From contig JBECKX010000063.1 of NCBI GenBank assembly GCA_040235515.1, positions 1 to 40,983 on the forward strand: a stretch of DNA of 40,983 nucleotides. Direction: 5' to 3'. Under the pieces are notes generated by a model, which saw only the letters and a program-made list of their open reading frames with translations, made no database searches and was not told where the DNA came from. Both the position numbers and the translations under genes were made by a program. Source of the DNA: Candidatus Zixiibacteriota bacterium (GTDB lineage: Bacteria > Zixibacteria > MSB-5A5 > CAIYYT01). Shown one piece after another: positions 913 to 24,836 of this stretch (positions within the stretch are counted from its first letter, which is position 1; each line of letters opens with the position of its first letter).

Positions 913-916
913 TGGA

Positions 917-985
917 GATGAGAGAATAGAGAGATGAGAATAGAGAGATGAGAATCCAGAGATGAGAATGAAGAGATAAGGGTAA
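917..985. repeat. Tandem direct repeat of about 14 bp (AGAGAGATGAGAAT, 4-5 copies) in the intergenic region upstream of the sigma-54 activator gene
   Basis: Visible as gagatgagagaata gagagatgagaata gagagatgagaatc cagagatgagaatg aagagataag. Confidence 0.8.
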
Positions 986-1086: not shown

Positions 1087-4000
1087 ATGTTAGGAGCCGG
1101 GTCTCAGGGGAGGCAGCCCGGGTATTCCCTGCCTCAGAGATCCAGCCAATTCTCCTCGAATGACAAAACTCAGAGGTTTAAGTTGCTCGATCGCCAAAGT
1201 CTCTTGTTCCTTGAACGGATCGGCAAAAACGAGCTTGTCGAAACCTGGCTTGCTCAATGGCCCGGGAGCGCGCGGAGAATAGTTCTGAAGCGCTCCAGCG
1301 CGTCGGGTGGCGATGCGCTTGCAGAAGCCAACTCGCTGCTTAAATCAGTTTTCCACCGCACGCGTGATATCCGGCACAACAATATTCTCAATCCAACCAG
1401 TATGTTGTCAGGCAACGAACCGGTGTCGTTACTGCGCGACTACATTGAGGATGCCGAAGAGCTCACTACTGATCACCTTGCCGATTCTTTGCCGCAGGTG
1501 GTTTACCAGCTCTTTTCGGCGGTGGACTTCATTCATGGGCTTGGCCTCGTCCATACTGACTTGCGCAGCAGCAATTTTCTGGTAACCCGCCGCGGTGGAG
1601 CATGCCGTGTTCTTCTTGCCGACCTCGACTTCATCACGCCCACCGCGACCCACGCACAGGGCGAGATTACCGGAACCATAGGGCATATTGCTCCCGAAGT
1701 GATTACCGAACGGCTGCTGTTACCACAATCAGATTTTTACTCGCTGGGTGTGATGCTCAGTAAGCTGGTGCAGCCGGGAAGGGCGTATGACACCAGCCTG
1801 AGTTTCGCGATCAGCCAGCAGTTGGGTCGTGAGAGCACCCACCTGGTGAGCGCTAAATCGGTCGATGCCCGCTTCGCCGGCCTGGTCCCGCTTATCAATG
1901 CTCTGTTGGAGCCACGCTACCAGGAGCGGCCCCTCTGGCTCGGCAGTCTGATCGAGCAGTACGCGAAGACTTTTGGCTGGGATTTTGAAGCATACAAGCG
2001 TGATGTCTTGTGGTCGCTCGTTAGAACCTCAGCAGCCCGGCTCAGTCGCGACGAGGGCCTCAGGCGGAGCGGATTGGCAGAGGCGGTCGCGAACGATATT
2101 GATATCCTCGGACTCGATCTTGAGTTGTTCCGCGACATCAGAAAGAACTGGCGCAGTGGGAGCGTCACATTGATGCGACTGCTTCGGGAAATTATCGATT
2201 CGGCAACCATCGAGCGCAGCGGCTACAGTTGGCGTGTGCAAGTGCCTGAGCGGAAGGTATTCGGGACTTACGCCCGTTTCGGCCTTTCACCGGAACTCTC
2301 GCAGGCGGTTGCGGGGCGGCAACCGCTAAATCTTCGCGTCAAGGCTGCATTGCGACTCAAGCTTCGCAAGGGCCACTACAAGGCGTTCCTGATCCTTAAG
2401 AGTATCGTTGCTTCACCAGAATTCGCTCAACTCCCGGAGAAAACGCGCTCGGCAGTACATTCAAAGCTTGGATATCTTTGCCTCGCCATTGGCCGCGCTA
2501 ATGAAGGGCGCGACTATCTTCGACAGGCATTGGACTACAAGAAACTGCATCCCTGGAAAGCTGTGCAACTGATCTGCGAAGTCTCCAGCATCCACTCTCA
2601 GGGAAAGAGTCCGACGCAGGCACGCGAGGCAGCGTTGTGGGCTGTGCGGGTTGCACGACAGAGTGGAGACGATCGCTTGCGCCTGAAGGCGCTCAATAAG
2701 CTTATCTGGTCACGCTTCATGATCAGGGGTGGCAGGCGTGTTGCGGCCAGTGCATGGAAGCTCTTTGAGTATGCGGAGCGCAACGGCCACGATTTTGCTT
2801 CAAAGCCGCTGGCCAATTCATTCGCGGCGATCTTGTGGAGCCAGGGAAAGTATCGCGAGGCGGTAAAGTTCCTGACCCATTTTCTGGAGAGCCATCGTTT
2901 TCTGCCGAGCGAGGAGATTCAATTCTCGCTCTACACGAACCTCGGCCTCGCGCTTGGCGATCAGAGCCACTTTGGTGCCGCGATCAGGGCATACAAGCGG
3001 GCATTGGCCGTGCCGCCGGGTGACCATAACTGGGGGCGACAGGTGTTCGCCCATCAAGGGTTGGTCGCATCCTATGTCGCGTCATCCGATTTCCAGCGCG
3101 CCCTGGCGGAAGCTGAGAATGTGTACGACAAGACGCGACGCTGGGGTGACCCGGCAGCCAGGATGATCTACAATTCAAACCTGGGTCAGGTTTACCTGGC
3201 AAAGGGTCAGATCAGGACAGCATTGCGTCACCTGCGCCTGGCTGAGGAAGCGGCTCGCGTAAGTGGTGCGGGGTTTTACCGATCGAGTGCGGTGATGTAC
3301 TTGACGCGTGCCGAACGCTGGGGCGGTGATCTGGTGGCGCTGCGGCGTGACCTGGAGACGCTGAGAGAATTGATCACCAACAGCGTTGACCCGCGTCTCA
3401 AGCTGCACGAAAGACTGCATACGCTCTGGCTCGAAGCCGCTGAATCGGGTGAACTGGATATGGATCGTGCGCGCGAATTGCTCGAGACCGCTGCCGAGAA
3501 GTCGCGTGCGCTTGAGTACTCCGAAGCGCTCTTTCTCATGGCGGAGTTCGGTTATGGGAAGGAAGCATTCAGGCTACGTTCAGTCAGCAAAGCGATCTGG
3601 CGGATTTGTCGAAAGAAGCGGGCGCCACGCTATGCCGGCCTCTACTACCTGATTCGATCGCTCAGTGGCAAAGCGGATGCCGAGCCGCGTTACCGGATCA
3701 ATCAACTCAAGCTCGCGATCGATCAGTTGGGTCGTGCTGAGGCACGTTACCACGCGGCGGTGGCAGCATTGCGTTTGATCCGCGAGTATAAGGAGTTAGG
3801 GAAATTTCCGCGGGCTCAGGGAGTTCTCAACCACGCCAGAATCCTCGCGGAGCCGCTCGACAATGGGTGGCTCAATGCTCAGATCGAGGCTGAGACGGCA
3901 CAACTTCGCGAGATGATCGGACCGGAGGGATCCAACATCGATTTGCTTCGTGAAGTGGGCGACATTCTGACTTCGGTGCACAACTATCGCAAGACGCTTG

Positions 4001-5412
4001 AGATGCTGCTGCGACAGGCAGTAAACCTGACCGGTTCGGAACGTGGTGCAATCGTTTTGACCCACTCCGACGTATCGGCGCTGAAGATCGAAGTAAGTCA
4101 TGCATGCGACGAAGTATCGGAGCGTGACATCCTCACGATTAGTCATAGCACGATCAAGCGGACGCTGGAGGAGCGGCAGGGCTTGATCATACACGACGCG
4201 CAACGAGACGAACTGACGCGGGAGTTCCGCAGTGTCAAGATACATAGTATTGTTTCAATCGCCTGCGTGCCATTGATGACACGCGGCAAGCTGCTCGGTG
4301 CGCTTTATCTCGACCATCGAAGCCTGCCTGCGCTATACGGCAAAGAGAACTATCGGGTCATCGAGGCATTGGCGCAATTCATGGCGGTTGCGATCGATAT
4401 GGCTCGGGGCATTCGCAAGAGCAGCGCCGAACGCACGCACGCGGTGGAGAAGCTCGATAGCATGGGTGCCTCGGTGGGGTTCCTCGCCGTCGACTCGAAA
4501 TCGCGAGGCGTGCTTTCACAGCTACCCAAGGTGGCGGCCTTCGACACGCACGTCCTCCTGCGCGGTGAAAGCGGAACCGGTAAAGGTTTGCTGGCTGAGG
4601 CGATCCACAACCAGAGCAGGCGTTCCGACGGGCCGTTCATCAGCCTGAACTGTTCACACCTCCAGGGGAGCAACGGGCTGGCGGAGTTATTCGGCGTGGC
4701 GCAGAGTGCATTCACCGGTGTTGGTGCGCGCGAAGGGAGGATCGAACGGGCCGACGGTGGCACGTTGTTCCTGGACGAGATTGCCGAACTCCCACCGGAG
4801 ATGCAGGCGGCCCTGCTCGATGTGTTAGACAGTAAGAAGATCACGCGCACTGGATGCACGACGCCGATCAATGTCGATTTCCGGCTGATCTGCGCGACAA
4901 ATGCCGACCTGGTGAAGCTGGCTGAGCGCAAGAAGTTCCGGGAGGACCTTTTCTTCCGGATATCCGCCTTTGTCATTAATGTCCCGCCCTTGCGCCAACG
5001 ACCGGGCGACATAGAGCCACTGGTGCGACACTTGATTTCGATTCTGCCGGGGGGTGGCCCCTCGCTCAGCTACACTTCCCGATTTATCAACGCACTTCAG
5101 AATTATCAATGGCCCGGAAATGTGCGTGAGCTTCGCAACGAGATCGAACGGGTCTTGATTCTACGCGATGGCAATCGTCTTGATATCGATCTGCTCAAGC
5201 CTGATATCGCACGCCACCACGATGGTGATATCGGTGCGGTTTCGCTGGATGAGTTTCTACTGCGGGCGGAACGGGAGCATATCACCGCCGCATTGAAGCG
5301 GACGCGTGGAAACGTCACGGCCGCCGGTCGCATTCTCAAATCTGCCCCATCCACGCTTCGATCCAAGCTGACCAAACTGAAAATTCAGGTTGATGATTTC
5401 AAGCCCAACTAG
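1087..5412 (+). CDS. Very large sigma-54-dependent transcriptional activator with an N-terminal degenerate Ser/Thr protein-kinase-like domain, TPR-like helical repeats, a GAF domain, an AAA+ sigma-54 interaction domain and a Fis-type HTH
   Basis: Kinase-like region: VLKR, catalytic loop HTDLRSSN (HRDLKPEN-like, D and N kept), DLDF in place of DFG, and GTIGHIAPEV (APE). GAF-like segment DILTSVHNYRKT...CVPLMTRGKLLGALYLDH. AAA+ domain: Walker A GESGTGKG, Walker B GTLFLDEIAEL, GAFTGA-like loop AQSAFTGVGA, arginine finger region NVRELRN. C-terminal HTH: EREHITAALKRTRGNVTAAGRILKS. Start codon uncertain (no clear SD at 1087). Confidence 0.85.
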   Translation: MLGAGSQGRQPGYSLPQRSSQFSSNDKTQRFKLLDRQSLLFLERIGKNELVETWLAQWPGSARRIVLKRSSASGGDALAEANSLLKSVFHRTRDIRHNNILNPTSMLSGNEPVSLLRDYIEDAEELTTDHLADSLPQVVYQLFSAVDFIHGLGLVHTDLRSSNFLVTRRGGACRVLLADLDFITPTATHAQGEITGTIGHIAPEVITERLLLPQSDFYSLGVMLSKLVQPGRAYDTSLSFAISQQLGRESTHLVSAKSVDARFAGLVPLINALLEPRYQERPLWLGSLIEQYAKTFGWDFEAYKRDVLWSLVRTSAARLSRDEGLRRSGLAEAVANDIDILGLDLELFRDIRKNWRSGSVTLMRLLREIIDSATIERSGYSWRVQVPERKVFGTYARFGLSPELSQAVAGRQPLNLRVKAALRLKLRKGHYKAFLILKSIVASPEFAQLPEKTRSAVHSKLGYLCLAIGRANEGRDYLRQALDYKKLHPWKAVQLICEVSSIHSQGKSPTQAREAALWAVRVARQSGDDRLRLKALNKLIWSRFMIRGGRRVAASAWKLFEYAERNGHDFASKPLANSFAAILWSQGKYREAVKFLTHFLESHRFLPSEEIQFSLYTNLGLALGDQSHFGAAIRAYKRALAVPPGDHNWGRQVFAHQGLVASYVASSDFQRALAEAENVYDKTRRWGDPAARMIYNSNLGQVYLAKGQIRTALRHLRLAEEAARVSGAGFYRSSAVMYLTRAERWGGDLVALRRDLETLRELITNSVDPRLKLHERLHTLWLEAAESGELDMDRARELLETAAEKSRALEYSEALFLMAEFGYGKEAFRLRSVSKAIWRICRKKRAPRYAGLYYLIRSLSGKADAEPRYRINQLKLAIDQLGRAEARYHAAVAALRLIREYKELGKFPRAQGVLNHARILAEPLDNGWLNAQIEAETAQLREMIGPEGSNIDLLREVGDILTSVHNYRKTLEMLLRQAVNLTGSERGAIVLTHSDVSALKIEVSHACDEVSERDILTISHSTIKRTLEERQGLIIHDAQRDELTREFRSVKIHSIVSIACVPLMTRGKLLGALYLDHRSLPALYGKENYRVIEALAQFMAVAIDMARGIRKSSAERTHAVEKLDSMGASVGFLAVDSKSRGVLSQLPKVAAFDTHVLLRGESGTGKGLLAEAIHNQSRRSDGPFISLNCSHLQGSNGLAELFGVAQSAFTGVGAREGRIERADGGTLFLDEIAELPPEMQAALLDVLDSKKITRTGCTTPINVDFRLICATNADLVKLAERKKFREDLFFRISAFVINVPPLRQRPGDIEPLVRHLISILPGGGPSLSYTSRFINALQNYQWPGNVRELRNEIERVLILRDGNRLDIDLLKPDIARHHDGDIGAVSLDEFLLRAEREHITAALKRTRGNVTAAGRILKSAPSTLRSKLTKLKIQVDDFKPN

Positions 5413-5442
5413 CTGATCACTCACTTCAGGCTTTGCCCCACG

Positions 5443-5479
5443 GCGATTCGTTCATCTGCAGCGAATCGCTTTTTTGTTG
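5443..5479 (+). terminator. Rho-independent terminator after the activator gene
   Basis: Stem gcgattcg...cgaatcgc followed by ttttttgttg, immediately 3' of the stop at 5412. Confidence 0.6.
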
Positions 5480-5733
5480 TCCCACAATCGACTCCGAGAA
5501 TCCACTCCAAACTGACCCACGAAATTTCGCTGATTTCGGCGCGAAGCACGACGCCTGCTTAAGGACATTCCCCGCAGCGTCCTTGTAACTGGTTGTTACG
5601 CTGTGCCTTAGAGGAACGCCCGACAGCGGCACAAGATGTGATTTAGCCCCCTGTGAGACAGACGCGACCCCCGCCGGGCGGTCGCAACAACGGCCACTGC
5701 TGGTGGTCAGGCAAACTCATAGGAGGAGTCACT

Positions 5734-6012
5734 ATGCGCAGAATCTTAAGCTCCGATGCGCGGAAAGCTGAAGCATTCACCATTCGCTCGAGCGTTATTC
5801 GCACCATCTCGATTTTCCTGCTGTGTGCGCTGGCGCTGATTCACTTGAATCTTGTCGATCCGGGACTCCAGCATGTCGCGGCCGAGGATGGTAATCCCCC
5901 CTGCCCCGGCGGATGTCCCGATGATTCACTGCCGCCCCCTTCAGGCTCGATGAGTGATGAACCGACGGAGGTGGTTCCCTGGTATTTCAGCCTATTATTA
6001 CTGGCATTATAG
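5734..6012 (+). CDS. Small hypothetical membrane protein (92 aa, hydrophobic segments at both ends, Pro/Cys-rich middle)
   Basis: ATG is preceded by a strong SD (ataGGAGGAGtcactATG). The track ORF 5653..6012 starts at an upstream GTG, and the internal ATG has the better ribosome-binding site. Sequence: MRRILSS...ISIFLLCALALIHL...PPCPGGCP...WYFSLLLLAL. Confidence 0.35.
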   Translation: MRRILSSDARKAEAFTIRSSVIRTISIFLLCALALIHLNLVDPGLQHVAAEDGNPPCPGGCPDDSLPPPSGSMSDEPTEVVPWYFSLLLLAL

Positions 6013-6683: not shown

Positions 6684-7872
6684 CAAAATAACACAAATTT
6701 CGTACCTCATGACAGGTTCTGACACCGCACAGGTTATACTTCACGACAGACGAACCGACCAAAATAGGATGGCTAAGGAGCTGCTTGATAGGACAACAGC
6801 AAAGGGTTGGGCGTCAAAAGCAGGGGAGCGCGATTTGACAGGTGCGGTCGACATGGGCCTCTGTGGAAGTGGTGGGGGATAGATTGCTGCCGGGCAGAGT
6901 TAGCTGGATTTGAGTTCTGGTTAGCGAGTGGATTCAGTTATGCGCGGGAGCAGTGGACAAATTAAAAAGGAGAGAGCAGAGCCCGGATCGAGAGAGGGGG
7001 ATGGAAACTCTCGATTTACAGCGGACTAAACTCCCTCCGAGAAGGGATTTAGCAAAAAGACATACATTTGTCAACTAAATTCGCTAACGATTCGCTAATA
7101 TTTTTGGCGGGTAAATCCTCTGATTTTATTGACGTTAGCGGCCGAAAAGCAGGTTGGGGCATCTGTCGGATCACTTTCCACACCACCTGCTGCGAATGTC
7201 CTTAGAGGAGTTCTTTTCAAGGGGAATTGCCGGTGCGGAGGCGTACCGGGGTTCAATCAAACAAACCGATGGAAGTTTTAGAGGGATACTTTCAATCAAA
7301 GCAGGGAATGACTGACGGGGCGTTTCAGCTTATGCTCCGCCTCCTCGGTGGGTAATTTCCGATCTCAGTTGCCCCCCCAGAGCTACCATTACGCCACGCC
7401 TTCCCCTACCCCGCCAGGTTGCGGCAACGTGTCTTGAGTGCGCGCCGTTTCAGCGGCCTGACCCCACTAAACTTTTTTTCAAGATTACCCCCACGGTTTT
7501 TCGCGGATTGGCCACAATTGCGTGACAACTTCTGCGTGACGATATCACCGACCACGCAACCACGGCCGCTGCAATCCTGAACCTGTTCGTCACTATGCAG
7601 CGTAGGGTTTACTTCGACTGGAAGAGCGCCAGCGGCGCGATCACGGGTAACGTGCGACTGTGACTCAAGCCGCACACGTTACTATCAGAACCCCGCGAGA
7701 TATCGGGATGCTGGAGCGAGCACCTCGAGTGAACGGGGTGATTGTTTCGTCAGGGATGTTATCCCAGATTCAGGTCTGAATTCTGGCGAAAGGCCCTACA
7801 ACTGACTTGTGCTGCGCTTTAAAGTAGCTAATTTACTCTACGGCATTCATGGCGCATTCAGGAGGGTCGTTT

Positions 7873-8685
7873 GTGAAGAATCCACGCATTGAAGCATCAG
7901 TCCGGGCTGCGGGGCTACTGGTTCTCTTGCTATACCTGGCAGTTGTAAACGTCGGCTTTTCAAGCGGAGTGGCGAACGCACAGACCACTGGGCTCTCCGG
8001 GGCGCAGGTTATCGTGCCCGGTCCACCCTGGCCTGACTCTATTGCAGTTCCGATTCAGATATCTCTCAACGACACGCTCAAGGCCCTCTCGATCTGGCTG
8101 CGTCCTGAGCTTGACGCCGTGCTGTTTGATGGCATCATTCCGACATCGTTTCAGCCCAATATTGACCAGTTTGAGAACCTGCCGAATGGCTACTGGGGGC
8201 CGACTACGTTTCTGCCAGCGGAGAATGCGCTGGGCTTCCATTGGACCAGCGTGTTGCCGGCCGGTCTGGTTGCGCCTGCCAGCAGCGAGCTGGGTACGCT
8301 CTACTTCCGGGTGATCGATCCCGACATCCCCTTCGGAACTGTGTTAGCGCTGGACACTCTCAATATTCCCAGTACTGCGCCGAGCGCGGTCCAGGTGCTC
8401 GCGAATGGCACCAACACAACCATGAATGCGCCGTTTCAGTGGCGCTTCGATAACATCGTCTTCGGAGCGGCGATCGAGTGTGGGGATGTCAACGCTTCGG
8501 GTGATGTGACGATCACTGATGCGGTTTTCATCGTCAACTACATCTTTGGCGGTGGTCCGGCGCCCTACCATCCCGGGACGGGAGATGTCGACTGCGATGG
8601 CGTGTTTATCATCACCGATGCGGTCTATGTGATAAACTACCTCTTCGGCGGCGGACCGATTCCGTGCGCTGTTTGCGGTGGTTGA
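7873..8685 (+). CDS. Secreted protein with two C-terminal dockerin-type (EF-hand-like Ca-binding) repeats
   Basis: Signal peptide KNPRIEASVRAAGLLVLLLYLAVVNVGFSSGVANAQ. Duplicated motif GDVNASGDVTITDAVFIVNYIFGGGPAP / GDVDCDGVFIITDAVYVINYLFGGGPIP. Probable GTG start at 7873 behind SD caGGAGGGtcgtttGTG (the track ORF begins at an upstream ATG at 7849). Confidence 0.6.
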   Translation: MKNPRIEASVRAAGLLVLLLYLAVVNVGFSSGVANAQTTGLSGAQVIVPGPPWPDSIAVPIQISLNDTLKALSIWLRPELDAVLFDGIIPTSFQPNIDQFENLPNGYWGPTTFLPAENALGFHWTSVLPAGLVAPASSELGTLYFRVIDPDIPFGTVLALDTLNIPSTAPSAVQVLANGTNTTMNAPFQWRFDNIVFGAAIECGDVNASGDVTITDAVFIVNYIFGGGPAPYHPGTGDVDCDGVFIITDAVYVINYLFGGGPIPCAVCGG

Positions 8686-12088: not shown

Positions 12089-12569
12089 GCTTCCTCACTT
12101 CCAATTGAGTTCTTATCCAATCATCGATTCGCTTGAGCGCAGCCGGAACTGCCGCGGCCACTTGAGGTGTAAGGGTTTCGGAGAGGGTTTCGATATCCCC
12201 TGCTTCGATGGCGAGCACGTCGATCTGCTCACAGATATTCATCCCCAGTTGTTTGCCGAGTTCCACGGCGACAGGCAGACTGATTTGATGGCTGGTGGTC
12301 AAATTTTTCGACGGCGTAAGAACGCCAAGCTCGAAGAAGTGAATCTCTCCCGGTACACCGTTACAGGTGCAGATTGAGTCGACGATCAGTATGCGTCGTC
12401 GATCCCGCATTAGCTCGAGCAGACGAAATCCCGCCAGCGCGGCAAACGCGATTTCCAGTTCGTCGAGGTTGCCCCAGCGTTGCCGCAGGTGGTCGGCAAT
12501 GACGACTCCAACGCGGTCATCGGTAAGCACCTCGTTTCCGAGGCAGAGAACAAGGACCGGGGCGATCAC
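12051..12569 (-). CDS. NiFe-hydrogenase maturation endopeptidase (HycI/HoxM/FrhD family)
   Basis: MIAPVLVLCLGNEVLTDDRVGVVIADHL...ILIVDSI matches the family N-terminus and metal-binding D/H residues. Lies 18 nt downstream of the large-subunit gene. Confidence 0.8.
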   Translation of the reverse strand: MIAPVLVLCLGNEVLTDDRVGVVIADHLRQRWGNLDELEIAFAALAGFRLLELMRDRRRILIVDSICTCNGVPGEIHFFELGVLTPSKNLTTSHQISLPVAVELGKQLGMNICEQIDVLAIEAGDIETLSETLTPQVAAAVPAALKRIDDWIRTQLEVRKHVGKRRLANARP

Positions 12570-12587: not shown

Positions 12588-14072
12588 CTAGCGATTGCGG
12601 TTTACGGTTTTGACGATCTCTCCAGTGTCGGCATCATGGATAATCAATTCCAGCGGCATACCACCTGGGAGCGTGTGCGTGGCACAGCCAAAGCACGGGT
12701 CGTATGCGCGGAACGCCATTTCGATCCGGTTCAGAACGCCGTCGGTGATCTCGGAACCTTTCGTGATCAATCCTTCGGCGGCCTTTTTGATCGACATCGT
12801 AATCGGAGCGTTGTTGTTGGTTGTCCCTACGATGAGGTTTGCTTCAGTCACGATTCCATTTTGATCGGTCTTATAGTGATGCGTCAGTGTGCCACGTGGT
12901 GCCTCCACGATGCCGACACCTTCTCCCACAATGCCGTCGGGCGGATTCAGGATTTCCTCGGAGGTTAGCTCATCATCCTGCGCCTGTTGGCAGGTGGCCT
13001 CGCAGGCAAACATCAATTCGACCACGCGTGCCCAGTGTGTGGCAAGCGTGGAGTGGACCGGGGTTTGGCCGGTTCGGTCACCAGTGAGTGTCTCGTAGAA
13101 ACGTTCGTATTCGGCCTGCGCCAGCGGCGTAGCCATACCATCAGAGACGTTTAAGCGTGAGAGTGGAGAGGCTTTGTATACGCCTGAATCGACACCATCG
13201 ACGAACCCTTTCCAACCAACTTTTTTCAGGAAAGGATACTTGAGATAGGAATAGGGTTCAACGTGCTCGGCCACATAGTCAAGATAGTCCTTCGGCTCAT
13301 AGAGAGCGTGCTCCTTACCATTCGGGTCGGTGACCCGCACGCGTCCATCATAGAAAGTCACTTTGTTGTTCTCATCTACCAGCCCCATGTTATAGGTTCG
13401 GTGCGCATAGGTGTCTGACAGGATAAGATCGACGTATGCCTGGTTGGCCAGGACGATGTCATTCAGCACCTGGATTGTGAACTGACCGAACTCCACCATC
13501 TCCCTGCCGATCTGGATCATTTCCTCCTGCTCCGCCTTACTGATCCGCTTGGTCAGGCCGCCGGGAACCGAGGTTACCGGGTGCACTTTTTTGCCGCCGA
13601 TGATCTCGATTATCCGTTGTCCGCGTGCGCGCTGTGCGATCACTTTCTTGCCTGCATCGACACCAACTTTAGCGATGACGCCCAGGATATTGCGCTCCGC
13701 CTTGGGGGCATCGGGACCGCAGACAAAATCGGGACCACCCAATGCGAAGAAGTGCGTGGTGTGATCGCCCGCATAGAAGGCGTTGTACATCAGCTCGCGC
13801 AGTTTGCGTGCGGCGGAAGGAATGGTAACGCCATAGACCGCATCAGCGGCCTTGGCCGATGCCATATGGTGCGCATCAGGGCAGACGCCGCAGATACGTG
13901 TCGTGATGCGCGCGAGTTCCTCCACAGGTCTTCCCTGACAGAACTTCTCGAAGCCACGCAGTTCGGGGATCTGGAAGTAACAGTTGGCCAGCGTGCCATC
14001 ATCCTCCACAAAGAGGTGAATCTTGCCATGACCCTCGAGTCGGGTGATTGGATCTATGACTACGCTCTTCAT
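12588..14072 (-). CDS. mvhA: NiFe hydrogenase large subunit, MvhA-like (group 3 type)
   Basis: N-terminal RICGVCPDAHH (RxCGxCxxxH) and C-terminal DPCFGCATH (DPCxxCxxH) Ni-Fe ligand motifs, followed by a 28-aa C-terminal extension, the substrate of the endopeptidase. SD GAGGAGGA. 4-nt overlap with the small-subunit gene. Confidence 0.9.
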   Translation of the reverse strand: MKSVVIDPITRLEGHGKIHLFVEDDGTLANCYFQIPELRGFEKFCQGRPVEELARITTRICGVCPDAHHMASAKAADAVYGVTIPSAARKLRELMYNAFYAGDHTTHFFALGGPDFVCGPDAPKAERNILGVIAKVGVDAGKKVIAQRARGQRIIEIIGGKKVHPVTSVPGGLTKRISKAEQEEMIQIGREMVEFGQFTIQVLNDIVLANQAYVDLILSDTYAHRTYNMGLVDENNKVTFYDGRVRVTDPNGKEHALYEPKDYLDYVAEHVEPYSYLKYPFLKKVGWKGFVDGVDSGVYKASPLSRLNVSDGMATPLAQAEYERFYETLTGDRTGQTPVHSTLATHWARVVELMFACEATCQQAQDDELTSEEILNPPDGIVGEGVGIVEAPRGTLTHHYKTDQNGIVTEANLIVGTTNNNAPITMSIKKAAEGLITKGSEITDGVLNRIEMAFRAYDPCFGCATHTLPGGMPLELIIHDADTGEIVKTVNRNR

Positions 14073-15040
14073 CGGTGAGTCCTCCTCAACATTGAGTCAG
14101 CGAGGCTGAAGCGGTAGAAGGTGCCGGTCGGATCGGGGATGCGGCTGATGATCGCCGCGATCTCGCCGGGGTCGGATGAGTCGATGACGCTCGCGAGGGC
14201 CGAGACCATCTTGGCGCCCTGATCACGTACGTTTGAAGGCAGGCCATAGCAGCCGCGACAGGGGATTCCAGCGCTGACGCACTTCGCGCCACAGCCGGCG
14301 CGGGTAGCGGGACCGAGGCATACGAGCCCCTGTTCCATCAGGCAGATATCCGGGTCGGTGACCTGCTGAAAGGGTCGTTTGAAAGACTTGATCTTTTTGA
14401 CATCCTTCTTTCGTTCGCATTCGTCGCAGCAGGTTTTCTCAGTTGCGCCCAGCACCGTACCCTTCGGTGGCAACGGCTTTCCATTCTTGAGGATATCCAC
14501 CACTGCGTCGATTACCGCGGCGATCTGGTTTGATTGCGGTGGGCATCCCGGAACGATGTAGTCGACGTCAACCACCTGCGGCAGGGTGCGCACGGTGTTC
14601 CAGAACTCGGGAATCGTAATGGTTCCCTCTTCCACTTCCACGCTTGTTTGCGGACGCAGGCCGTTGCCGCCGGCGAGCGAGGGGGACTGCGAGTAGACAT
14701 AGTCGAGGATTGACTCTTTGTCATAGAGATTCGCCAGCGCGGGGATGCAGCCCTCCGAGGCACAACTACCGAAGGCCACAAGCACCACCGATTTCTGTCG
14801 CAGCAGTTGAGCGAGTTCGTAGTTTTCGCTGGTGCGAATGGCGCCATTGAAGAGGGTCAGGGTAATTGAGTTATCTTCCATCGCACGGACATCATCATAC
14901 TTGACATCCATCGCACAGGGCCAGAAGACGACATCGAAGAAGTCGGCGACTTCCAGTATCTTGGTTTCGATGTCAAGAATTGCGATATCGCAACCTCCGC
15001 ACGATGCCGCCCAGTAGACCGCGAGTTTAGGCTTCGACAT
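14069..15040 (-). CDS. mvhG: NiFe hydrogenase small subunit, MvhG-like
   Basis: MSKPKLAVYWAASCGGCDIAILD... with the proximal-cluster Cys pattern and later GCPP. Start chosen at the internal ATG with SD GGGAGG (track start 15067). Confidence 0.85.
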   Translation of the reverse strand: MSKPKLAVYWAASCGGCDIAILDIETKILEVADFFDVVFWPCAMDVKYDDVRAMEDNSITLTLFNGAIRTSENYELAQLLRQKSVVLVAFGSCASEGCIPALANLYDKESILDYVYSQSPSLAGGNGLRPQTSVEVEEGTITIPEFWNTVRTLPQVVDVDYIVPGCPPQSNQIAAVIDAVVDILKNGKPLPPKGTVLGATEKTCCDECERKKDVKKIKSFKRPFQQVTDPDICLMEQGLVCLGPATRAGCGAKCVSAGIPCRGCYGLPSNVRDQGAKMVSALASVIDSSDPGEIAAIISRIPDPTGTFYRFSLADSMLRRTHR

Positions 15041-15503
15041 GGTGTACCTCCCTTGCTTCCGGCTCAAACTTGTAGTCGCGCAATTGCAGGGGGCCCAGCG
15101 CTCGAATCTGTTCGGTAAACTCCGTTACCACCTCCTGGAAGCGGGCACCCTCGGATGCCGACACCCACTCGAGGCGAACGCGTTTGGGATCGATGCCGAA
15201 GTCGGCTACGATTTTCTGGGTCAGAGGCATTCTGCGCATACACTTGTAGTTACCCTCGATGTAATGGCAATCCCCCGGGTGGCAACCACAGACCAGGACG
15301 CCGTCGGCGCCTTTGCTGAAGGCATCCAGGATAAACCCGGGGTCGACCCGTCCGGAGCACATCACCCTGATCGCCATCATGTTCGGGGGGTATTGCAGTC
15401 TGGCCGTTCCTGCAAGATCGGCGCCCGTGTAGGAACACCAGTTGCAGAGAAAGCCAATGATCTTGGGCTCGAATTTCGATTCGGATTTTGCTTCTCCGCT
15501 CAT
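15027..15503 (-). CDS. mvhD: MvhD-like (methyl-viologen-reducing hydrogenase delta) [2Fe-2S] subunit
   Basis: IGFLCNWCSYTGADLAG...IRVMCSGRVDPGFILDAF..GADGVLVCGCHPGDCHY is the MvhD/FlpD signature. Start overlaps the stop of the upstream gene (ATGA). Confidence 0.85.
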   Translation of the reverse strand: MSGEAKSESKFEPKIIGFLCNWCSYTGADLAGTARLQYPPNMMAIRVMCSGRVDPGFILDAFSKGADGVLVCGCHPGDCHYIEGNYKCMRRMPLTQKIVADFGIDPKRVRLEWVSASEGARFQEVVTEFTEQIRALGPLQLRDYKFEPEAREVHHVEA

Positions 15504-17281
15504 GCCAGCATTCCCTCGATTTGAGTGTAGATTTGTTCGTCGGTAAAATGCCTACCGGTGATAGCACCCGCAGGACATGCGGCAACACAGGTGCCACAAG
15601 CTTTGCAGAGTGCCGAATTGACGACGCTGATGCACTTTTCATCATTGAATTCGATTGCATGGTAGGGACAGAGATCATTGCAGATACGACAGCCCGAGCA
15701 GTACTCCTCCTGGATCTCGGCGTAGGTTGCATCCATCATAATTTCACCCTTGCAGAGCAACTTCATCGCCTGAGCAGCGGCAGCGCCACCCTGTGCGACG
15801 GTGTCGGGAATATCCTTTGCGCCCTGGCAGGTACCGGCAAGGAATACTCCTTCGGTGGCGGTTTGAACCGGCCCCAATTTGGGGTGTTGTTCGATGAACC
15901 AGCCATCGGCGCCGGTGGAGATATTGAGCTTTCGCGCCATCTCTTTGGCGTCCGCCCTCGCCTCCAGAGCTGTACAGAGCACGACCATATCCACCGGGAC
16001 TTCGCGGTAACGGCCGATCAGCGTATCCTCGCATTTGATGATCAAATGCCCCTCGTGCTTCTTCTTGTTGCTTGCGGGGACGACTTCGGCGCCTTTCCCG
16101 CGGATGACGTTGCCGCCCTCATCCAGAATCCGCTGGTAGAATTCTTCATACCCTTTGCCGAAGGAGCGCATATCGATGTAGAACTGGTAGACATCCGCTC
16201 CGGTTTTCTCTTTGATAAGATGCGCAAACTTCAACGCATACATGCAACAGACGCGGCTGCAATACTTGTGATGGTCGTCATCGCGACTGCCGACGCAGTG
16301 GAGGATGCCGATGCGTCCGGGAGTCTCACCATTTTCCATCAGAATCTTGCCACCGGTGGAGCCTGCGGCATTGTTCATTCGCTCGAACTCGATCGATGAG
16401 ATCACGTTGGGGAGTGCACCGTAGCCGTATTGTTTGAGCGGAGTTGGGTCGAAGTCAGCAAATCCGGTAGCCATGACAATCGCGCCGACCTCGAACTCCT
16501 CGGTGCTATCCTTCTGTTCGTAGTCGATACACTCCTTTGGGCAGACTTCGGCACAAATCCCGCAGTTGTCGGTCTGGAAATGGATACAGTGCTCGGTATT
16601 GATGTAAGGCACGTTTGGTACGGCCTGGCGGAATGGCATTGTGATCGCCGAGTTCGGACCGAGCTGCAGTTCGCGCAGGTTCACCTTCTTGCCGTCCTGA
16701 TCTTCCAGTCGAATGTGGCCTGTCGGACAGACGGAGGCGCAGGAACCGCACAGAATACAGTCGTCCGAAACCTCGTGAAATGGTGTCGTGACATTGCGCG
16801 CCCCGCCGCGGCTGGCGAATGTGAGAGCACTGGCACCAACGATTTCTTCACAAACCCGGACGCACAATCCGCACAGAATGCAGGAATCCTCTCCGGTTCC
16901 CCAGCGCGGTTCTTCGATACCAAGTTTGCCGGCAAGGTTCCGGAGGACCGGCAGCTCGGCGCAGCGACTCATCAGCAATTCGAGATTCGTGCGGCGAGCG
17001 TTCAAGACACGCGGTGTATCGGTGAGAATCTGCAGACCATCCCAGGCGGGATAGTTGCACGAAGTTACCACCTTCGACCACCCCTTACCGTCGCGAGCTT
17101 CTACCACGCAAACTCTGCAGGCGGCATAGGGGGTGGTGAAGGGAAAGTAGCAGAGAGTTGGAATCTCTATACCGAGAGCTTGAGCAGCCTGCAAGACATA
17201 GGAGCCATCCTCTACTTCGATTTTCTGACCATCGATCTCAATGGTCACGAGAGCTTGTTTATCGCCGTTTTGACTCTTCAT
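15500..17281 (-). CDS. Fusion protein: NuoG/FdhA-type N-terminal 2Fe-2S plus 4Fe-4S ferredoxin module fused to the C-terminal half of HdrA
   Basis: N-terminus VTIEIDGQKIEVEDGSYVLQAAQALGIEIPTLCY...CRVCVV (NuoG-like 2Fe-2S). Several CxxCxxCxxxCP motifs follow, then HdrA-specific ...HCVGSRDDDHHKYCSRVCCMYALKFAHL... and a C-terminal 2x[4Fe-4S] (CSGCRICNDLCP, CKACGTCVAACP). SD AGGAGGAG. Confidence 0.8.
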   Translation of the reverse strand: MKSQNGDKQALVTIEIDGQKIEVEDGSYVLQAAQALGIEIPTLCYFPFTTPYAACRVCVVEARDGKGWSKVVTSCNYPAWDGLQILTDTPRVLNARRTNLELLMSRCAELPVLRNLAGKLGIEEPRWGTGEDSCILCGLCVRVCEEIVGASALTFASRGGARNVTTPFHEVSDDCILCGSCASVCPTGHIRLEDQDGKKVNLRELQLGPNSAITMPFRQAVPNVPYINTEHCIHFQTDNCGICAEVCPKECIDYEQKDSTEEFEVGAIVMATGFADFDPTPLKQYGYGALPNVISSIEFERMNNAAGSTGGKILMENGETPGRIGILHCVGSRDDDHHKYCSRVCCMYALKFAHLIKEKTGADVYQFYIDMRSFGKGYEEFYQRILDEGGNVIRGKGAEVVPASNKKKHEGHLIIKCEDTLIGRYREVPVDMVVLCTALEARADAKEMARKLNISTGADGWFIEQHPKLGPVQTATEGVFLAGTCQGAKDIPDTVAQGGAAAAQAMKLLCKGEIMMDATYAEIQEEYCSGCRICNDLCPYHAIEFNDEKCISVVNSALCKACGTCVAACPAGAITGRHFTDEQIYTQIEGMLA

Positions 17282-17289
17282 GACTCCTC

Positions 17290-19305
17290 CTAGACCGCCG
17301 CCGGGGTTTTCTTACCGGCGCCTGATTGCCACAACTTGCGTGCCTTCTCCTGTAGTGCATCACCGGAGCCGCGCTTGACCCGCTTGATCGAGTCGAAGCG
17401 ACAGATCTGGAAACAGGCGCCGCACTGGATGCAGTCATCCTGCTTGATATAGTGCAGCTGCTTCGGTTCACCGATGATAGCGTTCGTGGGGCACGGTTTG
17501 ACACAGGCGTGGCAGCCGGTGCACGACTCATCGATTGCGTGAGAGACCAATTCCTTGCACACCCCGGCGGGACAGGTTTTGTCCACGACGTGGGCGATAT
17601 ATTCCTGTCTGAAGTAGCGAATCGTCGACAGCACCGGATTGGGTGCGCTCCCACCCAGCTGACAGAGGCTGGTATCGATGATCCCCTGCGACAACAGTTC
17701 GAGTTGTTCGATGTCGGCCAGGGTACCGTGGCCTGCAGAAATCTTGTTGAGGATTTCGAGCATAACCGCAATTCCCTCGCGACACGGGATGCACTTGCCA
17801 CAGCTTTCCTCCTGCAGGAAGCTGAGGAAGTAGCGCGCGACATCGACCATGCAGGAATCTTCATCCATGACGATCATGCCGCCTGACCCCATCATCGAGC
17901 CCGCCCTCGTGAGTTCATCGAAATCGACGGGCAGGTCAAGCAGGCTGCGGGCTTCTTCCTCCTCGCGGATATCCCCGTGCGCGACCAGTGAATCGTGGAT
18001 GTCGCGCTGACTGGTTTCGACGATCAGCGTACCGCCGGAGGGTCCGCCGGTCTGGACCGCTTTAAACCGCTTGTTTCCCGGGACGCCACCACCGATGTCA
18101 TAGAGGATTTCGCGCAGTGTAATTCCCATCGGTACTTCCACCAGGCCGGTGTTGTTTATCTTTCCGGTCAGCGCAAAGACCTTCGTACCCTTTGAGTGTT
18201 CCGTCCCGATCGAAGCAAACCAGTCGGCCCCGTGCTCGATGATCAGCGGGACATTCGCCCAGGTCTCGACATTATTGAGGTTCGAAGGTTTGTCCCAGAG
18301 CCCCTGCTCCACTGTGTGAATATACTTGGCGCGCGGCTCTCCCACTTTGCCCTCGAGTGACGCCATAAGTGCCGTGGACTCACCGCAGACGAAGGCACCG
18401 CCGCCACGCGAGATTTCGATATCAAATGAAAACCCGCTGCCGAGGATGTTATCACCCAGGAGCCCACACTCGTAACAATCAGCGAGTGCCTTGTTGAGGG
18501 TCTTGACGGCGAGAGGGTATTCGTTGCGCACGTAGACAAAGCCCTCGCTTCCGCCAATGGCATAGGCGCCGATGATCATGCCCTCTATGACCGCGTGCGG
18601 ATTGCCCTCGAGCAGGGAACGATCCATGAACGCGCCGGGATCGCCCTCGTCGGCGTTGCAGATGATGTATTTCGGAGTGCCGGGGGCTTTGCGACAACTG
18701 GCCCATTTTCTCCCCGTGAGGAATCCACCACCTCCTCGTCCCCGCAGGCCGGAACGCTTGACCTCCTCGATGATCTGTTCCGGTTGCATCGTGGTCAGCG
18801 CCTTGACGACAGATTCGTAGCCGCCGAGGCGTATGTAATCATCGATCGAGAAGGGGTCCATGTAACCGTTCTTCTCAAAGATAAGGCGCTTCTGTTTCTT
18901 GTAGAATGGTATCTCCACTTCCTGCTGGATGATCTCAGCAGTAGCAGGATCACGATAAAGGAGTTTCTTCACCGTGTGTCCGCCAATGATTGTCTGATCC
19001 CAGATCAGTTTGACATCCGCCGGCTTTACCCGCTGGTAGAAGATTCCACTCGGACGGATGACCACCAGTGGGCCTCGTTCGCAGAAGCCATGACAGCCGG
19101 TGGCTTTGAGTTCGACTTCCTTCGCCATGCCTTCTTTCGCGATCACTTCCTTGAACGCACGGTAAACCGGTTTACAGCCGCAGGCGCGGCAGCCGGTGCC
19201 GGCACAAACTGTGATGGTTGTTTTGTTGGGATCGAAGTTCGTTGTCAGCAGATTCCGCCAAGCCTCAAGCTCCCGGGGAGAGCCGATTCTGAGTGACTTG
19301 TTCAT
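17290..19305 (-). CDS. NuoF-like NADH-binding flavoprotein of the HydB/HndC type, with an extra N-terminal thioredoxin-like 2Fe-2S domain and a C-terminal 2x[4Fe-4S] ferredoxin
   Basis: N-terminus CAGTGCRACGC...CHGFCERGPLVVI. Core GGYESVVKAL...RGRGGGGFLTGRKW (FMN/NADH site) and ESCGKCIPCREG (cluster N3 motif). C-terminus CTGCHACVKPCP and CIQCGACFQICR. Confidence 0.9.
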   Translation of the reverse strand: MNKSLRIGSPRELEAWRNLLTTNFDPNKTTITVCAGTGCRACGCKPVYRAFKEVIAKEGMAKEVELKATGCHGFCERGPLVVIRPSGIFYQRVKPADVKLIWDQTIIGGHTVKKLLYRDPATAEIIQQEVEIPFYKKQKRLIFEKNGYMDPFSIDDYIRLGGYESVVKALTTMQPEQIIEEVKRSGLRGRGGGGFLTGRKWASCRKAPGTPKYIICNADEGDPGAFMDRSLLEGNPHAVIEGMIIGAYAIGGSEGFVYVRNEYPLAVKTLNKALADCYECGLLGDNILGSGFSFDIEISRGGGAFVCGESTALMASLEGKVGEPRAKYIHTVEQGLWDKPSNLNNVETWANVPLIIEHGADWFASIGTEHSKGTKVFALTGKINNTGLVEVPMGITLREILYDIGGGVPGNKRFKAVQTGGPSGGTLIVETSQRDIHDSLVAHGDIREEEEARSLLDLPVDFDELTRAGSMMGSGGMIVMDEDSCMVDVARYFLSFLQEESCGKCIPCREGIAVMLEILNKISAGHGTLADIEQLELLSQGIIDTSLCQLGGSAPNPVLSTIRYFRQEYIAHVVDKTCPAGVCKELVSHAIDESCTGCHACVKPCPTNAIIGEPKQLHYIKQDDCIQCGACFQICRFDSIKRVKRGSGDALQEKARKLWQSGAGKKTPAAV

Positions 19306-19856
19306 AGCTCGTCCTCCTCGTCCGCCTTGAGGTTCCCGGCACGGATATCAGATAGCATCTTGTCGGTTTTGGAGACGGTCATATTGCCATAGTAGACGTC
19401 GTTCGCCGTTACGAGGGGACCAAGCGCACAGGCCCCGAGGCAATTGACGGTCTCGAGGCTTACTTGGCCATCAGGCGTTGTCTCGCCGGCGTTGATACCG
19501 AGTTCGCGTTCGAGTTTGTCGACGATTACTGAAGCCTGGCGCACATGGCACGCGGTCCCGGTGCAGACGCAGACGTGGTTCTTCCCCTTTGGTTTCAGGC
19601 TGAACGCCCGGTAAAAGGTAGCCACTCCATAAATCTGCGCCATTGGCAGATTCATCTCCTCCGACACCTGTCGCAATGCGGCTTCCGGCAAGTAGCGATA
19701 GTGACGCTGGACGTCCTGCAGTATCATGATCAGGGCGGTCGGTTTGGCGCTGTAACGCTTTACGATGCTTTTCACGATAGCCGGCAGGTCGTAGTACTCG
19801 TCCTCTTCATGGCCTGCTGCCTTCGCGGCCACTGGAGTTGTCTTTGTCATTGCCAT
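19302..19856 (-). CDS. NuoE/HydC-like thioredoxin-type [2Fe-2S] subunit
   Basis: ...HVCVCTGTACHVRQ...VNCLGACALGPLV (CxxxxC...CxxxC). True start taken at the ATG (MAMTKTT...) that overlaps the stop of the upstream gene (TGATG) and has SD GGAGGTGG. The 5' part of the track ORF (to 20051) is Arg/Pro-rich alternate-frame junk. Confidence 0.85.
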   Translation of the reverse strand: MAMTKTTPVAAKAAGHEEDEYYDLPAIVKSIVKRYSAKPTALIMILQDVQRHYRYLPEAALRQVSEEMNLPMAQIYGVATFYRAFSLKPKGKNHVCVCTGTACHVRQASVIVDKLERELGINAGETTPDGQVSLETVNCLGACALGPLVTANDVYYGNMTVSKTDKMLSDIRAGNLKADEEDEL

Positions 19857-20818: not shown

Positions 20819-21696
20819 ACGTTAGCCACCTCCCCCCGCAGTTTGGCGGAGCGAACCGGAATCAGCAGTCTATCCATTCCCAGTTCCTTTTCCTTTAATC
20901 CCAATGCCAGCCCTACCAGGTGTGTGAAGTAGAGGATCGGGATGTTAAACTTCTGCCCGTAGCGGGCATTGATCTTGTCCTGGTAGCCTTCGAGGTTGAT
21001 CTGGCAGAGAGGACATGCGGTCGCGATCATTTCGGCGTCGTTGTCAGCAGCTGCCTGGAGCAGACCGTTGCAGAGCCTGAGCCCGATCTCCTCATCTGTG
21101 GTCATGAGCATCCCACCACAGCAGCGCACTTTCGGCGGATAATGCACAACCTCAGCTCCGAGAGCTTCAAACAGTTGATCCATGGTTACCGGCTCATCGA
21201 CATCATCGAAGTAACCGTGAGGTCTGACGATCTGGCAGCCATAGTAAGGCGCGACTTTGATACCGGTCAGCGGATTGGTTACGGCTTCCTTTAATGCCTC
21301 AAGACCGAAGTCATTGACGATAATGTCGAGAGGATGTCGCACAGTGACCATGTGATCGTAGCGGAGTTCGGCGGCTGAGAGGGCGGCGTTTATCTTCTCC
21401 CGCTCTTGCGGGTCCCAGGCGATATGACGGTTGGTCTTTTTCAGGATTGTGTAACAACTGCTGCAAGGTGCGCAGATATCCATTCCCATATCCTGCGCCA
21501 GCGCCAGGTTCCGGGCGCTGATGGCGTAGCCGACAATTTTCTTTGCCGACATGTACATCGTCGCGCCGCAGCAATTCCAGTCTTCGATTTCGGTGAGTCC
21601 CAGCCCTAGCTGTTTGAAGACGGCACGTACCGAGATATCATAGGGGCTGCCGGTGTGCTCGAGGCTGCATCCGGGATAGTAGGCGTAGTCAGTCAT
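20815..21696 (-). CDS. hdrB: HdrB-like subunit (two CCG domains)
   Basis: MTDYAYYPGCSLEHTG...WNCCGAT... and a second YYGCQIVRPH...CCGG (CCG cysteine-rich domains). TAATG overlap with hdrC. Confidence 0.9.
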   Translation of the reverse strand: MTDYAYYPGCSLEHTGSPYDISVRAVFKQLGLGLTEIEDWNCCGATMYMSAKKIVGYAISARNLALAQDMGMDICAPCSSCYTILKKTNRHIAWDPQEREKINAALSAAELRYDHMVTVRHPLDIIVNDFGLEALKEAVTNPLTGIKVAPYYGCQIVRPHGYFDDVDEPVTMDQLFEALGAEVVHYPPKVRCCGGMLMTTDEEIGLRLCNGLLQAAADNDAEMIATACPLCQINLEGYQDKINARYGQKFNIPILYFTHLVGLALGLKEKELGMDRLLIPVRSAKLRGEVANV

Positions 21697-24827: not shown

Positions 24828-24836
24828 GGCACAACC

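Follow-up and report, generated by a model that had tools for sequence, protein, structure and literature searches.

Bacterial enhancer-binding proteins (EBPs) are defined by the GAFTGA motif of their AAA+ domain and by their GG-N10-GC promoters; both features are deemed near-invariant and are used to filter genome annotations. In EBPs such as NifA, NorR and FhlA a GAF domain is followed by the AAA+ domain (Sigma54_activat) and by a helix-turn-helix (HTH) domain of the HTH_8 type. We analysed a 40,983-nt contig of a Candidatus Zixiibacteriota bacterium (JBECKX010000063.1; the whole stretch is called the window here), which carries on its forward strand, in an open reading frame (ORF) at 1087–5412, the gene of a large activator protein with this same domain order, intact ATPase motifs and an adjacent -24/-12-like promoter. 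Unlike NifA, NorR and FhlA, the window protein has about 900 extra N-terminal residues with a kinase fold and tetratricopeptide repeats (TPR), its L1 loop reads SAFTGV (xVATGV in its family), the promoter is without the -12 C, and the presumed regulon consists of peptide and WYL-regulator genes and not of nif, nor or hyc. Our results place the gene in a conserved three-gene module with the following main features.

1183–5412, + strand: activator gene, 1,409 amino acids (aa) from TTG 1183, in an ORF open from 1087
5627–5642, + strand: -24/-12-like element CGGCACAAGATGTGAT (GG-N10-GA), in the fully conserved block 5626–5661
5734–6012, + strand: small secreted-peptide gene, 92 aa; identical public gene call P0276
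6069–6683, + strand: wHTH-WYL regulator gene, 204 aa; winged HTH, three-helix linker and Sm-like WYL-type beta-barrel

The activator gene belongs to a conserved module

In the window and in 14 related loci, a small ORF comes after the activator gene on the same strand, and next comes a gene for an HTH_11 protein of about 205 aa, whose start is 500–600 bp past the activator stop. The 14 loci (L001–L003, L005–L008, L011–L013, L015–L017 and L084) are those that reach far enough downstream with the reading frame intact. In the neighbourhoods that were inspected, genes outside the trio were unrelated between loci. As judged by these comparisons, the three genes together with the promoter are a conserved module of the family.

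The first-pass annotation of the window had called a kinase-like input to an EBP rare, which our searches contradict. For these we searched exhaustively with HMMER, using a profile built from three sequences over the N-terminal 912 residues and a cut-off of E<=1e-30, and obtained about 210 cluster representatives (50% identity) that share the whole architecture, nearly all of them 1,350–1,420 aa long and matching from end to end. A word-indexed search with the N-terminal 950 residues returned a handful of relatives only. Among GTDB species genomes there were 15 clear members, all in metagenome-assembled genomes (MAGs) of Candidatus Zixiibacteriota or Ignavibacteria/Ignavibacteriales. The window protein is a divergent one, with ~19–25% identity to most members over the N-terminal part. 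Sequence comparison thus assigns the architecture to a large uncharacterised family in Zixibacteria and Ignavibacteria and not to a one-off chimera; a fusion artefact of two ORFs, a possibility raised earlier, is ruled out by the full-length collinear homologues. One Zixibacteria MAG, RS_7_36, has two family genes on different contigs (L010 and L016), and paralogous modules can coexist in one genome.

A second, unrelated group of proteins (P0005, P0041 and P0096) resembles the window family in that a Hanks-type kinase is joined via TPR and GAF domains to a sigma-54 activator, the order being Pkinase, AAA_16, TPR, GAF, Sigma54 and HTH_8. P0041 comes from a Gemmatimonadetes MAG and is annotated as 'sigma 54-interacting transcriptional regulator'. 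These proteins have canonical kinase motifs (glycine loop, HRDLKPSN, DLG/DFG), a GAFTGA loop and a STAND-type AAA_16 domain between kinase and TPR, whereas the window family has no AAA_16 and shows weak N-terminal similarity to them (E 1e-4 to 1e-10). Going by these sequences, a kinase-EBP fusion as such is not unique to the window family. Our literature search found no paper on kinase-EBP fusions of either group or on the window family.

A -24/-12-like element lies upstream of the small ORF, at a fixed distance from the activator stop

In the window, about 200 nt past the activator stop, we found an element that matches the family consensus YGGCAY-N5-TTG[A/T]. Its -24 half (TGGCAC/T) is complete and the TTG of its -12 half is present, with exact sigma-54 spacing and on the coding strand. 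When the window was compared with L085 and with L084, whose activator is 58% identical to that of the window over its full length, the block GCGGCACAAGATGTGA(T/C)TTAG-CCCCTGTGAGACAG (window 5626–5661) was 100% conserved, with flanks about 50% identical; the ribosome-binding site and the ATG of the peptide gene are conserved as well. The element could be aligned in 14/14 loci, and in 12 of these it lies 186–215 nt past the activator stop, the two others being loci with a broken reading frame. Its distance to the start of the small ORF is mostly 37–56 nt, and 92 nt in the window.

The regular expression GGCA[CT]N6TG was chosen after seeing the discovery data, in which it matched 11 of the 14 loci against 1.0 expected, and the identical test was then applied to held-out loci. 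For this, 33 metagenome loci were fetched with the partner protein (the HTH_11 regulator), of which 25 were usable and non-duplicate. The expression occurred in 15 of the 25; there were 18 hits in all where 1.7 were expected (Poisson P 3e-13), and they cluster 320–391 nt upstream of the partner gene. When whole loci were scored with an approximate sigma-54 weight matrix, the top hits of L001 (15.2 bits, TGGCATACATTTTGCT) and L002 (11.0 bits) were both just upstream of the small ORF. We therefore regard 5627–5642, on its sequence and placement, as a probable sigma-54-type promoter of the downstream operon. Elsewhere in the window, the stretch CGGCACAAACTGTGAT at 19200–19215 (+) has 13/16 positions as in the module element; it lies antisense inside a NuoF-like gene and is probably a chance match.

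Between the activator stop and this element we noted three further features.

5426–5443, + strand: conserved block CAGGCTTTGCCCCACGG, just past the activator stop, kept in L084 and L085
5442–5480, + strand: intrinsic-terminator-like hairpin (5442–5470) with an 11-bp stem, plus T-run, found by pattern match
5514–5529, + strand: conserved block GACCCACGAAATTTCG with the 10-nt palindrome CGAAATTTCG, ~100 nt upstream of the promoter

The block at 5426–5443 is tentatively proposed as a candidate upstream activating sequence. In many other loci, 2–3 phased TT[G/T/A][C/A]C[A/C/G]C repeats, of a TTnCCA-like type, could be made out by eye right after the stop, but could not be shown to be significant. 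One shared enhancer consensus, TTKMCAC, was also considered and rejected, being enriched only about 4-fold and in only 2 loci. The second block, 5514–5529, is kept in L084 and L085 amid otherwise diverged intergenic DNA and is a candidate for a second enhancer or an operator. As for the hairpin, the region as a whole has fewer terminator-like sites than shuffled controls, so that a pattern match alone is weak evidence; the hairpin might end the activator transcript and separate two transcription units.

The AAA+ domain is complete and has a family-specific L1 loop

The C-terminal part of the activator contains the following features. Here and below, Pfam residue positions are numbered on the 1,441-aa ORF, and the motif residues K36, D126, N131, D147 and APE 170–172 on the 1,409-aa protein.

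4495–5223, + strand: AAA+ sigma-54-interaction domain with lid (Pfam Sigma54_activat and AAA_lid_14; family motif conservation)
4705–4722, + strand: L1-loop motif SAFTGV replacing GAFTGA (translation)
5266–5376, + strand: HTH_8, Fis-type C-terminal HTH (Pfam, residues 1394–1430, E 3.9e-7, 30.1 bits against a cut-off of 22)

Sigma54_activat matched residues 1137–1297 (E 1.8e-52) and AAA_lid_14 residues 1303–1379. Walker A (GESGTGK), Walker B (DE), sensor I (TN), both arginine fingers and sensor II (GNVRE) are intact in the window protein and conserved in the family, and HTH_8 is presumed to be the enhancer-binding domain. The best NCBIfam match was nifA (TIGR01817), with 278 bits over residues 953–1366. 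Since this is far under the model's cut-off of 528.85, we class the activator, by sequence, as an EBP outside any named subfamily.

In comparison with GAFTGA, the window loop SAFTGV retains A, F, T and G, with the first Gly changed to Ser and the last Ala to Val. The L084 loop reads RAFTGV, and both proteins belong to a minority that keeps the Phe. The consensus of 109 family members is x-[V/A]-A-T-G-V, in which Thr (100/109), Gly (89/109) and Val (101/109) are well conserved, and the L1 region lacks one residue in comparison with canonical EBPs. As canonical GAFTGA EBPs occur in the Zixibacteria contigs L002, L011 and L012, the sequences mark the L1 change as family-specific and not as lineage-wide drift, and sigma-54 is probably in use in this lineage. 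With both Phe and Thr retained, the window copy is likely to be among the members best able to contact sigma-54 normally. A correlation between the L1 Phe and a C at -12 was looked for and not found: the window and L084, both with Phe, have A at -12, and the loci with C at this position are L001 (L1 DVATGV) and L002 (L1 GTASNA).

The N-terminal part has an atypical kinase fold followed by TPR-like repeats and GAF

Domain profiles matched a kinase-like N-terminus, GAF, Sigma54_activat and HTH_8 in the order claimed by the first-pass annotation, and all of the motifs it had quoted (HTDLRSSN, LADLDF, RIGKNELVETW, GESGTGK, DE and SAFTGV) are in the translation. The full order is kinase-like domain, helical/winged-helix-like linker, TPR-like repeats, GAF, AAA+ of the sigma-54 type and HTH_8, with the N-terminal and central features being:

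1183–1947, + strand: protein-kinase-fold domain (Pfam, AlphaFold2 (AF2), Foldseek and family conservation)
1948–3918, + strand: linker and TPR-like region, helical/winged-helix-like to ~2412 (AF2, residues 255–410), then helical repeats (Pfam)
3982–4398, + strand: GAF domain (Pfam GAF/GAF_2, residues 966–1104)

The Pfam Pkinase match (residues 93–235, E 4e-16, 59.6 bits vs. a cut-off of 31.7) spans the C-lobe only and misses the N-lobe. We modelled residues 33–442 with AF2 on an 84-sequence family alignment and obtained a model with a pLDDT of 92.3 and a pTM of 0.92, in which a five-strand N-lobe, the alphaC helix and the C-lobe are all there. Foldseek against the PDB returned protein kinases exclusively (Fyn, CaMKII, FGFR2, Lck and Src; E ~3e-11 to ~1e-10, target TM 0.70–0.77). 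Based on the confident model and on a fold search that gave kinases only, we consider the predicted bilobal protein-kinase fold established.

The motifs of the window protein are the beta3 lysine K36 (VLK36), HTD126LRSSN131, D147-L-D within LADLDF, and APE 170–172. Conservation was counted in 109 aligned full-length members. The beta3 Lys is kept in 102/103, the His and Asp of HxD in 109/109, the catalytic-loop Lys in 102/109 and the catalytic-loop Asn in 107/109. The first Asp of the DFG-equivalent triplet is invariant (109/109), and its third residue is acidic throughout (D 96, E 13). G-T-P-x-H-I-A-P-E, D-x-Y-S-x-G and R-P are also conserved family-wide. The glycine loop does not follow GxGxxG: the window has RIGKNELVETW with one Gly, and the family consensus L-S-E-N-x-L-x-Q-S-W has none. 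No clearly conserved alphaC Glu was seen in the family alignment.

A pseudokinase is usually recognised by loss of the beta3 Lys, the HRD Asp or the DFG Asp. The domain had been described as a pseudokinase or an atypical kinase; as these three residues are all retained and near-invariant in the motif alignment, we dropped the first of these labels, and the domain looks like an atypical kinase. Conservation of the catalytic residues across the family argues for selection for a catalytic or nucleotide-dependent role. The catalytic-loop Lys is replaced by Arg in the window and by Gln in L084, and because of this catalysis may be weakened or relaxed in their sub-lineage. An Arg at this position is found in Src-type tyrosine kinases.

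As for the "about 600 aa of TPR" reported earlier, the repeats are there, as a TPR_12 match at residues 577–642 (nt 2815–3012; 38 bits vs. a cut-off of 30.1, in two stretches) confirms, but it is the only above-threshold Pfam TPR match in the window protein, and the array may extend over about 500 aa. AF2 secondary structure covers residues 255–410. TPR_MalT gave a weak match in the window protein, and relatives match several TPR families, TPR_MalT included. The GAF domain was found by both GAF_2 (E 3.6e-13, 50.3 bits vs. 28.6) and GAF (E 2.4e-11, 44.7 bits vs. 22.4). In concept, the fusion of a kinase domain and a TPR sensor array with a DNA-binding output, together with the weak TPR_MalT match, recalls PknK/MalT-type regulators, and relatives are named PknK by NCBI (P0015). 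The window protein differs from these in its output, which is of the AAA+ sigma-54 type with a Fis-type HTH and not of the LuxR type, and has no AAA_16/NOD domain. No transmembrane segment was found in the activator (maximum Kyte-Doolittle 1.49). The sequence features are best explained by a cytoplasmic, single-polypeptide signal integrator of the EBP type.

The downstream genes encode a small secreted peptide and a wHTH-WYL-type regulator

The 92-aa peptide has a signal peptide (Kyte-Doolittle 2.11 for the N-terminal hydrophobic segment), an A-E-D-G-N-P-P junction, an acidic Pro/Gly-rich stretch without Lys or Arg, and the hydrophobic C-terminal tail VPWYFSLLLLAL. It gave no Pfam or NCBIfam match. 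The small proteins of the 15 loci have this layout in common: the signal peptide is followed by an A-(D/E)-G-G-x-P-P junction and by an acidic segment that is rich in Pro and Gly and mostly free of Lys and Arg, and the C-terminus is a hydrophobic tail of 12–14 residues, which is their most distinctive part.

A cytoplasmic TPR regulator next to a small gene for a putative pro-peptide with a signal peptide, seen here in 15 loci, resembles the RRNPP systems (Rap, NprR, PlcR, PrgX and AimR), and the distinctive C-terminal tail adds to the likeness, which is a resemblance only. RRNPP receptors have a simple HTH or phosphatase output, and to our knowledge the systems occur only in Firmicutes and their phages. 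In the neighbourhoods inspected, there was no conserved Opp-type transporter gene beside the module.

HTH_11 was found in 14/14 members of the partner regulator and HTH_PafC in 6/14 (Pfam). The C-terminal domain gave no match by sequence, as a PDB profile search and Pfam returned HTH matches alone, and it was identified as a WYL-type barrel by structure prediction and fold search. In the AF2 model (pLDDT 88), a winged HTH is followed by three long helices and then by a five-strand barrel at residues 153–203, and the best Foldseek matches were PafBC, DriD, CapW and BrxR, with Hfq for the barrel. The PADLOC WYL model matched residues 3–119 (E 3.5e-16). There was no Pfam WYL (PF13280) match, and the chain is too short to include a WCX domain; by sequence, the YafY-type HTH-WYL-WCX proteins form the nearest outgroup. 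With its winged HTH and its putative Sm-like WYL barrel the partner resembles PafBC, DriD, CapW and BrxR, from which it differs in its length of 204 aa, in having no WCX, and in belonging to a signalling module and not to a DNA-damage or defence context. A defence-system reading of the locus was considered and rejected, as PADLOC gave only generic domain matches for the RtcR-type AAA+, kinase and WYL parts.

Proposed mechanism and alternatives

From the observed anatomy and its conservation we infer that the activator depends on sigma-54 and binds enhancer sites, and that its inputs control the ATPase. On balance we favour, at somewhat better than even chance, a circuit in which the activator switches on the adjacent peptide and WYL-regulator operon via the sigma-54-type promoter. 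By analogy, the kinase-fold, TPR and GAF inputs would restrain assembly or ATPase activity of the AAA+ ring until a signal arrives, with GAF acting as in NifA, NorR and FhlA and TPR as in MalT and PknK. The activator would bind sites just past its own stop and/or ~100 nt upstream of the promoter, and DNA looping would bring it to RNA polymerase at the -24/-12-like element 5627–5642, where ATP hydrolysis and the L1 loop SAFTGV, with Phe and Thr retained, would open the promoter. The output would be the small secreted acidic peptide and the wHTH-WYL regulator, which may relay the signal to further genes. Such a circuit would account for the fixed geometry between activator stop and promoter, for the co-inheritance of the three genes, and for the presence of an HTH and a complete ATPase in the activator.

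Several observations speak against this circuit. The chief doubt, as read from the sequences, is that neither recognition half has its classical form: most members have no L1 Phe, and most promoters have no -12 C. At the L1 Phe position we counted A 94, F 8, V 5 and Y 2 among the 109 members. The Phe has been found consistently essential for sigma-54 contact, with Tyr as a rare substitute (PMC7057263), and is likewise reported essential in PMC3162934. Of ~30 loci, about 17 have A at -12, about 11 have T and 2–3 have C, and the window site, with GA instead of GC at -13/-12, for this reason scores only 6.3 bits on the approximate matrix. Conservation alone suggests the enhancer sites, a search of the window and the fetched family loci gave no RpoN box, and in 3 loci a canonical response-regulator EBP adjoins the module and could serve the promoter instead.

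Some of these points speak for the alternative that the family has left the sigma-54 system and works with a holoenzyme of the sigma-70 type, or else represses genes or shapes DNA architecture, with the YGGCAY-N5-TTGW element being an operator or another kind of promoter. We consider this unlikely but a serious alternative: the Phe is lost to a non-aromatic residue in most members (Ala/Val in 99/109), the L1 region is one residue short, the -12 C is missing in ~90% of the elements, and Francke et al. classed EBP homologues with defective GAFTGA as sigma-54-independent (PMC3162934). Described cases are TyrR, DhaR, HupR and VpsR, in which GAFTGA is deleted or decayed (PMC3162934), and the window family is like them in that its L1 departs from GAFTGA and its majority is without Phe. 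Unlike in these proteins, the new L1 motif is strongly conserved, as are all ATPase motifs, which suggests a retained but altered contact and not decay. A -24/-12-like promoter is moreover conserved beside the gene, with its -24 half and TTG at exact sigma-54 spacing, on the coding strand and at a fixed position, and neither the window protein nor its closest relative has lost Phe or Thr (the window protein also has the Gly).

The altered halves could also belong together. In a variant sigma-54 circuit, the xVATGV loop would have co-evolved with a TTGA/TTGT -12 half, maybe with a dedicated RpoN paralogue; Cereibacter sphaeroides has RpoN paralogues with cognate activators. To this may be added a peptide autoinduction loop, in which the TPR array would sense the C-terminal tail of the very peptide whose gene the activator turns on, in an RRNPP-like manner and with the kinase fold as an extra input. 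We give this combination only a small chance. The loop would, speculatively and by analogy, put RRNPP-like logic in Gram-negative bacteria of the Fibrobacteres-Chlorobi-Bacteroidetes (FCB) group.

A further possibility is that the promoter does belong to sigma-54 but has another, canonical EBP as its activator, and that the large protein is mainly a Ser/Thr kinase or STAND-like scaffold, which might phosphorylate the WYL regulator or another target or be an anti-activator. Its kinase catalytic residues are conserved family-wide, and canonical GAFTGA response-regulator EBPs do adjoin the module in L002 (9903–12313), L011 (~16169, +) and L012 (upstream of the module). We regard this as very unlikely: only 3 of ~15 loci have an EBP gene of this kind beside the module, and the window is not among them; what invariably adjoins the promoter is the large gene, with its stop at the fixed 186–215 nt; and the large protein has an HTH_8 and a complete AAA+ engine of its own. 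L002 also has a histidine kinase, and a canonical GG-N10-GC site TGGCTAAGAATCTGCT (12461–12476) precedes its adjoining efflux operon.

The model of the first-pass annotation, in which phosphorylation signalling by the canonical Ser/Thr kinase encoded at 28798–31629 leads to sigma-54 transcription of the hydrogenase/hyp island, is highly improbable: it draws on co-location within 40 kb only (Mvh-type hydrogenase, HdrABC-like, NuoEF-like and hyp genes and the Pkinase-TPR protein), whereas the regions upstream of hdrC, hypA and nfeD score at best 3.5–6.7 bits for canonical and family-type sites, a strong canonical match at 15596–15581 (-) is intragenic and no better than chance hits in the window, L084 and L001–L003 have entirely different neighbours without hydrogenase genes, the island is absent from the other inspected loci, and at none of these does the kinase gene stand beside the activator gene.

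Start and upstream region of the activator gene

The gene had been taken to encode 1,441 aa. The ORF at 1087–5412 (+) does run through 1,441 codons with no interruption, but by its sequence context the true start is probably TTG 1183, which gives 1,409 aa. This placement follows the public gene call P0001 (1,409 aa, starting at TTG 1183), and in the L084 orthologue the equivalent start TTG stands behind an identical GAGGTTT ribosome-binding site, 5 codons downstream of an in-frame stop. Moreover, ATG 1087, the first of the ORF, falls within the -10-like hexamer TATGTT of a promoter-like block.

1062–1091, + strand: candidate sigma-70-type promoter of the activator gene, TTGTTT (1062–1067), 18-nt spacer, TATGTT (1086–1091)

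This block is kept in the L084 orthologue and the DNA flanking it upstream is not; it is a candidate for a functional sigma-70-type promoter. Further upstream, about 200 nt from the activator gene, a four-copy 14-bp tandem repeat GAGAATAGAGAGAT with 90% matches occupies window 915–977 and is missing from the orthologous upstream region of L084. Another block, at 812–856, is common to the window and L084 and reads CAATCTAC..CGATTG..CGTCAAGA..CGATTTCG. Its ATTTCG core reappears downstream of the activator gene in a conserved block at 5520–5538, and this recurrence hints at a shared operator and possible autoregulation.

Other genes of the window and of related loci

The 6684–7848 stretch, ~1.1 kb past the WYL-regulator gene, has no convincing ORF and no Rfam match, the Rfam scan of the whole window being likewise without matches. 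The gene of a dockerin-domain protein (7849–8685) comes next; dockerin proteins are also found just downstream of the module in L003. In L084 the neighbours are radical-SAM, peptidase and cysS genes, with no hydrogenase gene.

A redox island occupies 12588–28513 (-) of the window and encodes NiFe hydrogenase large and small subunits, MvhD/FlpD, a 2Fe-2S/4Fe-4S protein, NuoF-like and NuoE-like proteins, an HdrA-like flavoprotein, HdrB (CCG), an HdrC-like protein, HypE, HypD, HypF and HypB, in a layout resembling electron-bifurcating Mvh/Hdr systems. Our scan for canonical and family-type -24/-12 sites upstream of the hdrC, hypA, nfeD, band-7, dockerin and activator genes found none. The intragenic match at 15581–15596 (-), TGGCACCTGTGTTGCC, looks canonical and scores 12.6 bits, a score equalled by other hits in the window that are presumably due to chance, and lies inside the 3' end of an Fe-S/2Fe-2S gene, ~80 nt upstream of the mvhD-like (FlpD) and hydrogenase small-subunit genes.

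Beyond the kinase gene, a PrsW-family intramembrane protease gene (31632–32636) adjoins a 983-aa ORF without Pfam match (32633–35587, -). Near the contig end there are genes for a 526-aa protein with STI1/HOP DP-like repeats (35748–37331, -) and for an extracytoplasmic function (ECF)-type sigma factor (38289–38939, -), and a truncated HATPase_c protein is encoded at 40334–40888.

Significance

What is new, as far as the sequences tell, is a conserved atypical kinase and TPR input, a conserved L1 variant, and a conserved non-canonical promoter and regulon on an EBP-type activator. A link to the nearby hydrogenase genes, tempting as it is, finds no support. The family keeps every ATPase motif, has a different and conserved L1, and is accompanied by an adjacent promoter with a perfect -24 half and an altered -12 half. 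If its members are true sigma-54 activators, they would be a natural experiment on the cooperation of the L1 loop with the -12 fork junction and on how much of GAFTGA is needed; if they are not, a large family would have left the sigma-54 system in a structured way. Taken by itself, the gene is not as exotic as was first thought, as its architecture is common in these phyla, and it is the family pattern that should surprise sigma-54 specialists. Either way, the three-gene module is a concrete, testable regulon for a kinase-fold input in poorly known phyla.

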